A DNA stretch of 64,000 bases from Octopus vulgaris (Eukaryota), in NCBI GenBank assembly GCA_951406725.2, contig OX597831.1:76446001-76510000 (forward strand), written 5' to 3'. Both the position numbers and the translations under genes were made by a program. Positions 5,750-56,609 of the stretch are shown here, one piece after another; the first letter of the stretch is position 1, and every line of letters begins with the position of its first letter. Under the pieces are notes generated by a model, which was given only the letters and a program-made list of their open reading frames with translations, made no database searches and was not told where the DNA came from.

Positions 5750-5940
5750 TCGCGTGTGTACCGTTGGCGATTTTTTTTTCCTCCGTCTTCCCTTCTTTGG
5801 ATCTTTCCTTTTCCTATGTTTCTGACGAAGAGCTCCACCCGAAACGTTAAACCCTCCTTCTTTCCTTCTTTCCTGAGCGTCCAATAATACTATACTTGTT
5901 CCACGTCCTCGCGTTGTTGTGTTTTCATGTTTGGATTAAC
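5750..5940 (+). mobile_element. About 200-bp pseudo-LTR-like module with minimal hammerhead (5818-5852)
   Basis: GUUU-CUGACGA-AGAGCUCCACCC-GAAAC-GUU-AAAC. Near-identical copies at 6622-6826 (-) and 41746-41954 (+); all flanked by TA/TG microsatellite. Confidence 0.8.
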
Positions 5941-6624: not shown

Positions 6625-6826
6625 TAATCCAAACAAGAAAGCACAAAACAACACAACAACGCGAGGACGTGGAACAAATATAGTATTATTGGACGCTCAG
6701 GAAATAAGGAAAGAAGGAGGGTTTGACGTTTCGAGCGGAGCTCTTCGTCGGAAACATAGGAGAAGGAAAGATCCAGAGAAGGGAAGACAGAGAAAAAAAT
6801 CGCCAACGGTACACACGAGGTCACAT
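6622..6826 (-). mobile_element. Second copy of the 200-bp minimal-hammerhead module (core CCGACGA, 6721-6755)
   Basis: Reverse complement of 5750-5940; perfect GAGC/GCUC stem II and GAAACGUC-AAAC. Confidence 0.8.
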
Positions 6827-14997: not shown

Positions 14998-15112
14998 GCT
15001 ATAAATAATATATATGTGTGTGTGTGTGTATGTGTGTGTGTGTGTGTGTGTGTGTATGTATGCATCTATATATGCATATGTGGGTACAGGACGTCACCAA
15101 CTGTAAACAACA

Positions 15113-15310
15113 AGAGTGGCTGTGTGGTAAGTAGCTTGCTAACCAACCACATGGTTCCGGGTTCATTCCCACTGCGTGGCATCTTGGGCAAGTGTCTTCT
15201 GCTATAGCCCCGGGCCGACTAATGCCTTGTGAGTGTCTTCTACTATTGCTTCGGGCCGACCAGAGCCTTGTGAATGGATCTGATAGACGGAGACTGAAAG
15301 AAGCCCGTCG

Positions 15311-15346
<36 letters not shown>

Positions 15347-15543
15347 GGTCCCGGGTTGAGTCGGGGTTAACCACAGTAAATAAGGTACTCAATACATAGC
15401 AGAGTAAATTAATTTATTTTATAGAAGGAGCTTCTACAGGACTAGAACTGTTTCATTCAAAAGAAATCATCAGGAAGCTTCCTGATGATTTCTTTTGAAT
15501 GAAACAGTTCTAGTCCTGTAGAAGCTCCTTCTATAAAATAAAT

Positions 15544-18359: not shown

Positions 18360-18653
18360 GTAGCGTGCTTTCACTTCACTACCGAGCGCAGCTCTGTGTG
18401 CCTTAGGTATGTGCTGTGATTTGTTGTGATGCTCCGATGGTTACTGTATTGAAAGTGTTCTGCGTAGGTTGTGTACAGTGCCTAGTAGTGCAATTTTCTG
18501 TATGTTATACGTGTTTGTAAGTCCTGGTGTTTTTGTTATGTATTTGTCTGAATATTTTTTTATCATGCCTCATGCACCTACTATGATAGGAATTGTTTCT
18601 GTTTTTAGATTCCACATTCGAGTTACCTCTATTTCCAGGTCTTTGTATTTTGA
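18360..18653 (-). mobile_element. R4/Dong-type (restriction-like endonuclease) LINE 3' end, subfamily 1
   Basis: SKYKDLEIEVTRMWNLKTETIPIIVGA*GMI..IQKIALLGT.H.LRRTLS, then a UTR running into (TAA)n at about 18200-18345. Confidence 0.88.
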
Positions 18654-19554
18654 TGTTGACAAAGCCCTGACCCATCAATGGCTAATGGCCTCTGGCTTAA
18701 AATCTGAAACAGAAGGGTTTATCATAGCAGCTCAAGATCAATGCCTACCTAAAAGGAACTACCAGGCCAACATATTAAAGAACGGCAGTAGCCCAACATG
18801 TCGTGTTTGTCAACAACAAAATGAAACCATTGATCATATTGTCTCCAAGTGCAGTCTTCTTGCGCCTACAGAGTATCTCAACAGGCATGATAGAGCTGCA
18901 CAATATATTCACTGGGTAATTTGCAGAAGCCTGGACTTGCCCCATGATAAAAACTGGTGGGAACACAAACCACCTCCAGTGCTTGAAAATGACCACATCT
19001 CACTCCTCTGGAACTTCACCATTCAAACTGACAGAAAGATAGACGCGAATAGGCCAGACATCATAGTAAAAGACTTCAGACAAAAAGCATGCCTCCTCAT
19101 TGATATGACTGTCCCAATCGATGTAAACGTATCTGCCTAGACCTACCAGAAACTGGGCAAATATAAAGATTTGGAAATAGGAATCAGCAAAATGTGGAAC
19201 CTGAAGACTAAAACAATACCTGTTGTCATAGGTGCCCTGGGAATAATAGCAAAAGAGGCTGATTGCTACATAACTCAGATACCAGGAAACCCCAAAATGG
19301 CAGAAATTCAAAAGATAGTGCTCATGGGAACTGCACATATCCTACGCAAAATACTTTCTTTGTAATCTCAAGTTTTAAAACAAACATAATTTTCGTGCGG
19401 TTCTTTAGGCATTCACTAGTACAATACTAAGTACAAAACCTAATATATGGCACCCTAGGCATAACACCAACATGAACTTCCAACTTGTTGTCTCTTGAGG
19501 TCTGTGTGAGACTTGGAGCCAGCTTGTGCAAATGTAAAGCAAAAGTCAAACATA

Positions 19555-31902: not shown

Positions 31903-31997
<95 letters not shown>

Positions 31998-32015
31998 TAG
32001 ATATAGATCGAATTC

Positions 32016-32075
32016 GCGTCTTGTCCCAAGCTTCGAAACGCAGAGTAGATAAAACAGTGGACAACAGATGGAGGG
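32016..32075 (+). ncRNA. Non-circularly permuted hammerhead-like motif, core mutated (CAGAUGG)
   Basis: GCGU-C-UUGUCC-caag-CUUC-GAA-ACGC-linker-GGACAA-CAGAUG-GAGG; stems III (4 bp) and I (6 bp) are perfect. Confidence 0.6.
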
Positions 32076-32261
32076 ATTGTTCTTTATGTTGCCTGTCTCG
32101 TTTCTCTATTTTATTTCGTTGTTCGAAAAAAAGTTCGCCTTTCATGTTTCTGCTTTTTATGTTCTCGTTTCTCATTTTTTCACGTTTTTTAACGTCCTGT
32201 ACACATATATGCATGTATATATACATATATATGTAGGTATGTACATATATGTACGTATATA

Positions 32262-32318
<57 letters not shown>

Positions 32319-32320
32319 AT

Positions 32321-32861
32321 TATTATATACATATATATTTATGTATATGTGTATGCGTGTGTGTATACATATACACATGTATATATATACATGTATGTCT
32401 GTGTATATATATATATATATTGATAAATACGGTAAGATAACAAAAGAAAGAAAGGGACCTCGATATCATGTAAATAGAGGCATTTATCTGTAAATGTAAT
32501 ATGTGACAATTATTCGGTAGCCATGATAAAACTCCGAGTTTCAGATGCCGAGGTGGAAATCGACGCCGCCATCTCTTCAGCATTTTCCCGATGGCCGGAT
32601 AACTGAAGAGATGGTCGCGTGGATTTCCACCTGGCATCCGAAACTCAGAGTTTTATCATAGCTACCGAATAATTGTCACATATTACATTTACAGATAAAT
32701 TTCCTCTATTTACATGATATCGAGGTCCCTTTCTTTCTTTTGTTATCTTACCGTATTTATCAATATATATATATATATATATACACAGACATACATGTAT
32801 ATATATACATGTGTATATGTATACACACACGCATACACATATACATAAATATATATGTATA

Positions 32862-41745: not shown

Positions 41746-41954
41746 ATGTGACCTCGTGTGTACCGTTGGCGATTTTTTTTCCCTCTGTCTTCCCTTCTCT
41801 GGATCTTTCCTTCTCCTATGTTTCCGACGAAGAGCTCCGCTCGAAACGTTAAACCCTCCTTCTTTCCTTCTTTCCTGAGGGTCCAATAATTCTATATTTG
41901 TTCCACGTCTTCGCGTTGTTGTGTTTTTTATGTGCTTTCTTGTTTGGATTAACT
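41746..41954 (+). mobile_element. Third copy of the 200-bp minimal-hammerhead module (41820-41854)
   Basis: Matches 5750-5940 and 6622-6826. Confidence 0.8.
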
Positions 41955-47830: not shown

Positions 47831-48986
47831 CGTCCTCATCACACCGTTTCCCACAAAATTAAAAAAGGCTGTAAGTTGTTTCTGGTACAAAAAAAAAAAA
47901 GAATCTATTGGACTTTGTTGTTGAGTGTTTTTAGTGAAAAAGGCCCGAGGTGAGCAACTGGCCCGACTGAAGAGGAAGGAGAAACGAAGCGCTAAGATAA
48001 TTTCAAGGACCTTCAGAGGGTCGAGAGAGCCATTGGTTTGTACTCTACTAACGACGAGGTCTTATTAGCTACATAACAACAACAGCAACAACAACAACAA
48101 CAGCAGCTCAGTAGTAGCAGCAGCAGCAGTAGTAGTAGTAGTAGTAGTAGTAGTAGCAGCAGCAGTAGTAGCAGCAGCAGCAGCAGAGATGACTTGGGAG
48201 GAGGAGCTAAACAACAGCAGTTATTGCGAGCCATCAAAGGAAGTTAAACCAGAGCATGGCAGCGCCACCTAACGTGCTAGAAATAGCAACCAAGCAACCT
48301 CAGGCAAGCCTTGTACTGAGGTCAAGTCCCTCCCCTCAAAATTGTTTACCTTGTACTGAAATTGTAATCCTTTTTATTTGTTTACTTATTGAATTGTTTT
48401 TATATTTATTTCATGAAAGGAAATGTAAAGTGGTTCGGTTAGAACCTCGGCCTGCCGCTCACATCATCAAGTAGGCAAACTGTCAAAGGTAAAAATGTTT
48501 TTTTATAAAAAAAACCCCAAAAAACAAAGAAAACATTAAGGGCACATTGAAAGTGAAACCCTGCGGGGCTCGAACTCAGAGCAACGTTGCATCAAAAGAA
48601 GATATCATTAGATGTTGTAAAGGATGTAGTCCGGTGCATTATTCGACAGCGAAGTTACCGTGATTTTTAACCAAAAGTTTGTTCGTTGATTCGCGTGGCG
48701 TGGGTTTGGATGGGTGTTGGGGCGATGGTGGGGGTACCCATACCAAAATATAACTACCTTCACTTCCTGAAACATATGTAGCATGTATACACACACGCGC
48801 AGACAGACAGACGGATAAACACACATACACACACGTTTATATGCAATATGTGTGTATACACGCATACGTATATGTATGTATGTATATCTCTTCTGCATTT
48901 AACCATTTAATTTCTTCCTCTGGAAAAGGAGTTGGTTTCTAACAAAGATACAAAGCTCCAATTCTGGAATGTAGATAGAAGCAATG

Positions 48987-56189: not shown

Positions 56190-56220
<31 letters not shown>

Positions 56221-56242
56221 ATGTGTGTGTGTGTGTGTGTGT

Positions 56243-56540
56243 GTGGGTACAGGACATCACAACTGTAAACAACATGAAATGTTGTCTTCGAAGACAATTA
56301 CTCCTGTAACTTCCAAAATAAATTTTGGATTTTATGACGGGTTAAAGCTGGGAACAAAAACAGGCTCATATTTGTCGTTAAATTCTCGAAATGAGAAGTA
56401 GATAGACAGCCGACAACTGATGAAGTGTCGTTCTTTGTGTTACTTGTCCTGTTTTCGATTTTTTTTCTCTCGTCTGCGTATCTAACTCACTTGTTTTCGT
56501 ATTTTCATGTTATTTACGGTTGGTGACGTCCTGTACCCAC
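56243..56540 (+). mobile_element. About 300-bp module with inverted termini carrying a permuted hammerhead
   Basis: gtgggtacaggacatcacaactgtaaacaacatgaaa pairs with tttcatgttatttacggttggtgacgtcctgtacccac; related to about 32010-32205. Confidence 0.75.
56365..56427 (+). ncRNA. Non-circularly permuted hammerhead-like motif with intact CUGAUGA and GAAA
   Basis: CUCAU-A-u-UUGUCG-uuaaa-UUCUC-GAA-AUGAG-linker-CGACAA-CUGAUGA-AGUG; stem III 5 bp, stem I 6 bp, stem II weak. Confidence 0.7.
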
Positions 56541-56609
56541 ATATGCATACATACATGCATACATACACACAGACGCACACGCAGACGCACACACACACAC
56601 ACACATACA

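Follow-up and report, generated by a model that had tools for sequence, protein, structure and literature searches.

A decayed, 5'-truncated repeat copy in the Octopus vulgaris genome and the rearranged, core-opened hammerhead fold predicted for its intact relatives

The window analysed here, a stretch of 64,000 nucleotides of the Octopus vulgaris genome (GenBank assembly GCA_951406725.2, contig OX597831.1, positions 76,446,001 to 76,510,000 of the forward strand), is AT-rich and microsatellite-rich and has few long reading frames. Contig placement and homology to a second copy at 56.4 kb define a 5'-truncated repeat copy at 32009..32204 (+), which consists of a ribozyme remnant, a T-rich 3' part and a tail. 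A (GATA)n microsatellite (31903..32008) lies at its 5' break, and a (TA/CA)n microsatellite (32205..32420), likely the insertion target, follows its tail. The second copy has a forward piece placed by contigs at 56365..56541 (+), with cleavage block, GAAA block, intact CUGAUGA, 3' part and tail, and an inverted 5' part at 56282..56364 (−), assigned to the same copy by contig joins and pairing. Blastn and nhmmer revealed an inverted tail copy of about 40 bp at 56242..56281 (−), so that 56242-56541 represents a single insertion made of inverted tail, inverted 5' part and forward 3' part. They also revealed a detached tail copy of about 37 bp at 15079..15115 (−). This tail of subfamily A (see below) stands alone, joined to a SINE-like repeat, and may mark a template switch or the mobilisation of another RNA.

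Elsewhere in the window, two nested minimal type I hammerhead-like motifs with CUGACGA and CGAAAC, as in other Penelope-like elements, were seen at 5822-5860 (+) and 60203 (−), and their upstream words recur at 6785-6813 (−) and 41759-41790. The near-perfect long inverted repeats at 32540-32650 and 15440-15520 each carry a CUGANGA word in both arms. A CUGAAGA followed by GAAAC at 47967 (+), about 20 nt past a 164-aa frame with no Pfam match, is possibly a hammerhead remnant. A 223-aa frame at 18469-19140 (+) gave a zf-RVT match that is weak and falls under the curated cut-off (E 3e-5); it is probably a LINE remnant.

The modules at 32 kb and 56.4 kb are homologous, as a sequence-only reading of this DNA had proposed. 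Their local alignment scored 62, whereas 2000 shuffles averaged 19 and never exceeded 35, and nhmmer between the two gave E values of 6e-7 and 1.3e-7; with the 3' flank alone, 3 of 2000 shuffles scored at least as high. The letters quoted in that reading, including a GUC triplet and a CAGAUGG core, were all found where it had put them. For the downstream word that it gave as common to both modules, the 56.4-kb copy reads gttctttgtgtt, not gttctttatgtt.

Contigs from four sequencing runs were placed on 32004-32125 (subfamily B) and on 56200-56600 (subfamily A), which assigned the 32-kb and 56.4-kb modules to these separate multi-copy subfamilies. The placed contigs numbered 1019, 899, 1220 and 703 for subfamily B and 3365, 3476, 2656 and 2424 for subfamily A; abundance is stated as contig counts, and summed contig depth was not taken as copy number. 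Near-identical words of the 56.4-kb module were present in sequencing runs under four organism codes; none of those listed was an RNA run, which carries no information about expression. The loose ends of the contigs extend subfamily B upstream of 32009, where the 32-kb copy gives way to (GATA)n. Other contigs connect 56372 with 56283, 56314 or 56331 on the opposite strand; therefore, 56282-56364 is the natural upstream part of the 56.4-kb copy. Among the differences listed for subfamily A (40 of 113), the majority letters have G at 56396 and at 56426 and no extra U, and the changes at these two positions and the extra U after the cleavage base are private to the 56.4-kb copy. In one run, eight contigs revealed a third variant, with a loose end before 32019, the stem III strand CACAU and GAAC upstream. 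CGAA occurs at the same place in the loose ends of all three subfamilies. Some other copies omit 39-89 nt of the T-rich part (56429-56464 joined to 56503-56519) and retain the tail.

Read from its 5' break on the plus strand, the 32-kb copy begins with the 5' strand of an internal loop between stem III and a helix termed P4 (32009..32014, CGAA and two U able to extend stem III). The stem III 5' strand (16.5-16.1) follows at 32015..32019 and forms four pairs in the copy, GCGU at 32016-19 facing ACGC at 32038-41. C32020 is C17 of a GUC triplet and the predicted cleavage base, its position being assigned by analogy with hammerheads. The stem I 5' strand (1.1-1.7, 32021..32027) forms six pairs in the copy, with UUGUCC at 32021-26 facing GGACAA at 32059-64. 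A 3-nt linker from stem I to stem II (32028..32030), of a length typical of type-SGC hammerheads in the available text of PMC10085705, leads to the stem II 3' strand CUUC (32031..32034), whose upstream partner GAAG, known from the loose-end consensus of 4/4 runs, was lost from this copy. The core bases G12 A13 A14 (32035..32037) and the stem III 3' strand (15.1-15.5, 32038..32042) come next, followed by the internal loop 3' strand GAGUAGA (32043..32049), which is common to both copies and likely forms a bend. The P4 3' strand occupies 32050..32057 and the stem I 3' strand (2.7-2.1) 32058..32064. The mutated core C3-A9 lies at 32065..32071, and the predicted P5 3' strand, so assigned because the matching GGGU of subfamily A pairs with an upstream ACCC, at 32072..32076. 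In the 56.4-kb copy, stem III is CUCAU/AUGAG (56365-69/56391-95) and stem I is UUGUCG/CGACAA (56372-77/56411-16).

G12 A13 A14, the A15.1-U16.1 pair and a non-G base at position 17 are all present in the 32-kb copy (32035-38, U32019 and C32020), and the block order S, G, C is found in both modules. The hammerhead core C3 U4 G5 A6 N7 G8 A9 is not, the copy reading CAGAUGG at 32065-71. The majority letters of subfamily B among the contigs depart from the copy at five places. T at 32066 (98.7-99.3% of depth) and A at 32071 (99.2-99.7% of depth) return the core to CUGAUGA in 4/4 runs. G at 32042 (76-88% of depth) restores the fifth stem III pair, G at 32058 (54-89% of depth) adds the seventh stem I pair, and the fifth difference, A at 32077 (61-92% of depth), is located after the core. 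No change of at least 5% was listed at 32010-32038 among the subfamily B contigs, and therefore GCGU and UUGUCC are family letters. Core position 7, which is free in CUGANGA, is A in the loose-end consensus of one run.

Four upstream strands and two core bases are missing from the 32-kb copy. Because of its private changes and its 5' truncation, we regard it as almost certainly a fossil, most likely unable to cut, in agreement with the sequence-only reading, which had called it probably dead from the CAGAUGG core; in the family, about 99% of depth supports the core CUGAUGA. To judge from the sister subfamily A, P5 and P6 would also have been lost at the 5' break at 32009. Restoring only the core of 32016-32075, as had been suggested, would likely give no cutting even if the family is active, a false negative, because the partners of stem II and P4 lie upstream of that break.

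The pairing of stems I and III had been described as kept at every position between the two modules. Three of the ten shared pairs have indeed changed on both sides and are still Watson-Crick; by chance, six changed letters would make up three whole pairs with a probability of 0.003. In the 32-kb copy C32015 faces A32042, which breaks the fifth stem III pair. The comparison of subfamily A with subfamily B covers 21 common pairs (stem III 5, stem I 6, stem II 4 and P4 6), counted from the window letters, the majority letters and the loose-end consensus of these two subfamilies only. Six of the 21 have changed on both sides and are still Watson-Crick (one in stem I, two each in stems II and III, and one in P4), and none is broken. 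The chance of 12 changes falling in six whole pairs is 5e-6, for a structure chosen after the letters had been seen. Three helix-end pairs are formed in one subfamily only: 10.5/11.5 and 10.6/11.6 are paired in A and mismatched in B, and the stem I pair 1.7 is found only in B. MAFFT alignments put the stem I 5' strands out of register because of the additional U that follows the cleavage base in the 56.4-kb copy, and pairs were therefore counted by coordinates, with the register of stem I resting on family reads without that U. The covariation is a record of selection on the two parent subfamilies, not on the window copies, which have decayed since insertion. Covariation within the window had been put forward as the strongest internal evidence for selection. 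The changes are real, but far stronger evidence lies outside the window, in the family reads and in the 3' ends of Naiad elements described below.

A relaxed S-G-C descriptor, written with knowledge of the 32-kb copy, gave one match in the window, at C32020, and none in 30/30 shuffles. The earlier reading of the blocks as hammerhead parts in a rearranged, non-circular order is supported. A strict descriptor gave no match in the window because the core of the 32-kb copy is mutated and the 56.4-kb copy has the extra U. Focused Rfam scans of the two copies found no hammerhead, and in a whole-window Rfam scan the 150 of 320 matches listed were only microsatellite matches to microRNA models. Pattern matches at three viral and two metagenome loci were rejected as chance, since their stem III has 0, 4, 2, 1 and 0 pairs and their flanks are unrelated.

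The three-block fold drawn earlier contains the hammerhead parts and is incomplete, with the partner of stem II and one strand of P4 lying upstream. In subfamily B, upstream of 32009, GAAG pairs with the CUUC before GAAA, and CUGUUUU pairs with the AAAACAG of the supposed shared linker, which is thus a helix strand of P4 and not a linker. These upstream strands come from a 30-letter loose-end consensus with an agreement of 0.74-0.86 in 4/4 runs. In subfamily A, GAGCAA faces UUGCUC to form stem II and CUGUCU faces AGACAG to form P4. The six stem II pairs of A come from a loose-end consensus with an overall agreement of 0.43-0.46, of which the last four letters agree in 4/4 runs; the 56.4-kb copy's own pieces form four of the six. 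Stems I, II and III of the family thus have 7, 4 and 5 pairs in B and 6, up to 6 and 5 pairs in A, and P4 has 6-8 pairs.

On the minus strand, the inverted piece of the 56.4-kb copy carries the P5 5' strand ACCC (56342-39), which pairs with GGGU after the core, and then the P6 hairpin (56337-04), the stem II partner (56303-298) and the P4 5' strand (56297-92). Within this piece (56282-56364), P4 forms 6/6 pairs and the P6 inner stem 8/8 pairs; P5 forms 3/4 pairs in the copy and 4/4 once 56426 carries the G of the family. Between A and B the GGG that follows the core stays constant, whereas the 11.x strand changes together with the upstream strand, and the P6 hairpin stands between the P5 partner ACCC and G10.1. 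P5 and P6 were not seen in subfamily B, whose loose ends reach 30 letters only, and no further intact upstream strand was found in the 64-kb window. In every textbook hammerhead A9 and G10.1 are adjacent. In the fold predicted for this family they would lie on different strands, with two helices (P5 and P6) between them.

In this repeat family, only one strand of the loop that separates stem III from P4 matches a kink-turn, and a reading of the loop as a proven kink-turn was rejected for that reason; the loop also fits the AGUA/GAA bulged-G motif. Competing pairings are available between 32059-64 and 32077-82 and between 56411-15 and 56426-30. Nested folds of the two copies were no more stable than those of shuffles (z 0.68 and −0.78), and nested folding cannot show crossing helices. 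The predicted cleavage site is preceded by the inversion point at a distance of 6 nt in the 56.4-kb copy and by the 5' break at a distance of 12 nt in the 32-kb copy. A reading of these breakpoints as a footprint of cutting was rejected, given that there are two copies and both retain the site. We also rejected an origin of the order by partial deletion of tandem type I units, for which no evidence was seen.

Naiads, as described by Craig et al. 2021 (PMC8557442), insert into microsatellite targets with 5' truncation, an inverted 5' piece and a 30-40-bp tail, and form partial tandems. The available text of that study describes Naiads as devoid of canonical hammerheads and offers no fold; its metadata flag eight families, including Naiad_Ovul and Naiad_Esco, as 'HHR_half_core', with core halves 35-50 nt apart, and give no hammerhead flag to Naiad_Obim. 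We read by eye 41 Naiad 3' ends from its supplement, 250-500 nt each, with Obim and Ovul read whole. The same layout in other letters was recognised in full in 8/41, the other 33 being not fully parsed. Among these eight, which fall into five sequence types unrelated to one another (Obim/Ovul, Esco, Amil/Aacu/Anas, 2_Movir and Plae), the ends of Naiad_Obim, Naiad_Plae, Naiad_Amil and Naiad-2_Movir can be read as entire core-opened permuted hammerheads. In this reading by eye, stem II forms with an upstream strand (6/6 pairs in four of the five types, 4/6 in Esco), and the strand after the core is unpaired with 11.x and pairs far upstream. P4 has 5-10 pairs, and a hairpin precedes G10.1. P5 begins 0-2 nt after A9; it has 5-8 pairs except in Obim/Ovul, with about 3. 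A, U or C occupies position 17, and U or G occupies position 7. Between stem III and P4, Naiad_Obim/Ovul have a loop that is a textbook kink-turn, and the Amil type has a one-sided bulge.

The window copies themselves have Naiad-like traits, namely a microsatellite target, 5' truncation, an inverted 5' piece and a 30-40-bp tail, which other Penelope-like clades also show. We saw no Naiad reading frame next to either copy, and no GIY-YIG endonuclease or reverse transcriptase domain was found in the 10 of 51 listed open reading frames that were scanned, both copies being microsatellite-flanked and 5'-truncated. Exact searches with four short family motifs gave no relevant match in the available supplement of PMC8557442, in which line breaks can hide matches. 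The tie to Naiads is therefore one of architecture and insertion style, by which the repeat probably represents the 3' end of a Penelope-like retroelement of Naiad type, or else a non-coding sequence derived from such an element.

The family very likely keeps a selected permuted hammerhead fold with an opened core, and it is quite likely that this fold would cut itself after position 17. As a whole, we consider it probable that 32016-32075 is a decayed piece of a 5'-truncated repeat whose intact copies are predicted to form a scrambled, self-cutting hammerhead opened between A9 and G10.1. It is fairly likely, further, that this core-opened wiring, outside the six block permutations and closed again by a four-way junction, represents the self-cleaving ribozyme that had seemed to be missing in Naiads from cnidarians to cephalopods, present here in thousands of copies and in at least two covarying subfamilies.

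Stem II could instead be formed as in a plain type-SGC hammerhead, by the strand right after CUGAUGA (an extra A, then GGG), with the upstream pairings accessory. Penelope-like hammerheads usually have an extra base between A9 and G10.1, according to the available text of PMC4209133, and the majority letters of subfamily A would allow G-C, G-U, G-C and possibly U-G pairs. In subfamily B, however, that strand offers one Watson-Crick pair and two wobbles with a duplex energy of 0.0. The constancy of GGG while the 11.x strand changes, and the far-upstream pairing of the corresponding Naiad strand as read by eye, also argue against such a stem, and we consider this arrangement unlikely. An origin of the pairings by chance, or as DNA-level inverted repeats of the family with no RNA function, is extremely unlikely: helices of 4-6 pairs are common in this AT-rich sequence and Rfam has no hammerhead at either copy, but the 30 shuffles contained no descriptor match, the crossing helices covary, the family letters restore both core and pairs, and the same layout was recognised by eye in unrelated Naiad sequences.

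The fold might also be selected and no longer cut, acting at the 3' end as a structure that the Naiad reverse transcriptase recognises or uses for priming, with the hammerhead letters being structural. It lies 125-180 nt from the 3' end in this repeat family and in Naiad_Obim/Ovul, where cutting would sever the tail; a core opened at A9/G10.1 could slow catalysis, and minimal Penelope-like hammerheads cut poorly in vitro, as stated in the available part of PMC4209133. Nevertheless, unrelated types all retain the catalytic bases, together with a base other than G (C, A or U) at position 17 and a variable position 7, as would be expected if chemistry were under selection, and we consider a non-cutting structure unlikely. 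Pairing between two molecules or tandem copies, giving a nested hammerhead as the active form in place of the scrambled single-molecule fold, agrees with the partial tandems of Naiad insertions (PMC8557442) and with the dimers formed by other Penelope-like hammerheads (PMC4209133), as far as the available text of each goes, and would avoid the several crossing helices that a single-molecule fold requires. The stem III strands, however, are separate 5-bp complements rather than one short palindrome, P5 would clamp both ends of one unit, and the 0-2 nt between P4 and stems I and II in every example read fit a single compact fold. We consider this alternative very unlikely.

The preferred self-cutting, core-opened fold would have the strand order, from 5' to 3', P5a, P6 hairpin, stem II (10.x), P4a, loop, stem III strand and cleavage base, followed by the stem I strand, a linker of 3-4 nt, stem II (11.x) with GAAA and the stem III partner, the loop, P4b, the stem I partner with CUGAUGA, and P5b. 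Joining the ends of a type-SGC hammerhead and reopening it between A9 and G10.1 would give this order. P4 would link the far ends of stems I and II and return, through the likely bend, to the far end of stem III, perhaps running back along stacked stems II and III. P5 and P6 may form a four-way junction that holds A9 beside G10.1 and keeps the opened core together. The predicted cut, after the C32020-equivalent base on the sense strand, would fall about 180 nt before the 3' end of the element and leave two products still paired through stems II and III, P4 and P5. The likeliest role would be the cutting of tandem or read-through transcripts to unit ends, a role hypothesised for the hammerheads of other Penelope-like elements in the available text of PMC8557442.

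If the family does cut, the rule that CUGAnGA and its stem II strand are inseparable, the basis of the six permutations of Eckert et al., would be broken, and a non-circular hammerhead would exist at high copy number in animal genomes. It would also overturn the statement that Naiads, dominant in many invertebrate genomes, spread without hammerheads. Hammerheads would then be near-universal in endonuclease-bearing Penelope-like elements, which bears on the role of ribozymes in retrotransposition. Because the layout is missed by standard descriptors and by Rfam, counts of animal ribozymes may be too low. Our literature search, which covered a minority of subscription journals, found no published description of a permuted hammerhead in Naiads or of a core opened at A9/G10.1. 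The available supplement of PMC10085705 has no mention of octopus, metazoa or kink-turns, and no mention of SGC, pseudoknots or cephalopods was found in the available text of bioRxiv 10.64898/2026.07.22.740005.

Among known systems, the type-SGC hammerheads (HRIMA-1 and variants) of Eckert et al. 2023 (PMC10085705) are the first to be compared. According to the available text, they cleave in vitro at 0.007-0.13 per min, a short linker separates their stems I and II, and the far sides of these stems are connected by a helix to which P4, by analogy drawn from that text, would be equivalent. The repeat family resembles them in the order of cleavage, GAAA and CUGAnGA blocks, in its linker of about 3 nt, in the helix joining stems I and II and in the covariation of stems I to III. 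The six permutations, however, assume that CUGAnGA and its paired neighbours stay together, and the stem II strand of type-SGC follows CUGAnGA directly, with at most 1-2 inserted bases, whereas that of the family lies upstream of the cleavage block. The family differs further in having P5 and P6 between A9 and G10.1 and in that both P4 strands link to stem III. Moreover, no type-SGC form was reported from the genome of a known organism in that text, whereas this family is a multi-copy repeat in an animal genome. By analogy, it would work like a type-SGC hammerhead but not be a member of that type, one defining feature being absent.

With Naiads, as far as they are described in the available text of PMC8557442, the family shares microsatellite targets, 5' truncation, an inverted 5' piece, a 30-40-bp tail and the ribozyme-like layout; its letters differ from those of the cephalopod Naiads in that study, and no adjoining reading frame was seen. 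The available text of Cervera and de la Pena 2014 (PMC4209133) locates minimal type I hammerheads in the terminal repeats of Penelope-like elements. The family has their core, their G10.1-C11.1 pair and the base after A9. Those hammerheads, however, are of the nested type I, with a short palindromic stem III and a requirement for dimers, whereas in the family stem III consists of separate 5-bp strands and helices cross one another. Non-LTR retrozymes, as presented in the available text of bioRxiv 10.64898/2026.07.22.740005, are likewise non-coding, hammerhead-bearing and linked to Penelope-like elements; they form tandem arrays of units that each carry a type I hammerhead, whereas the window copies are single and dispersed and have a non-type-I order.
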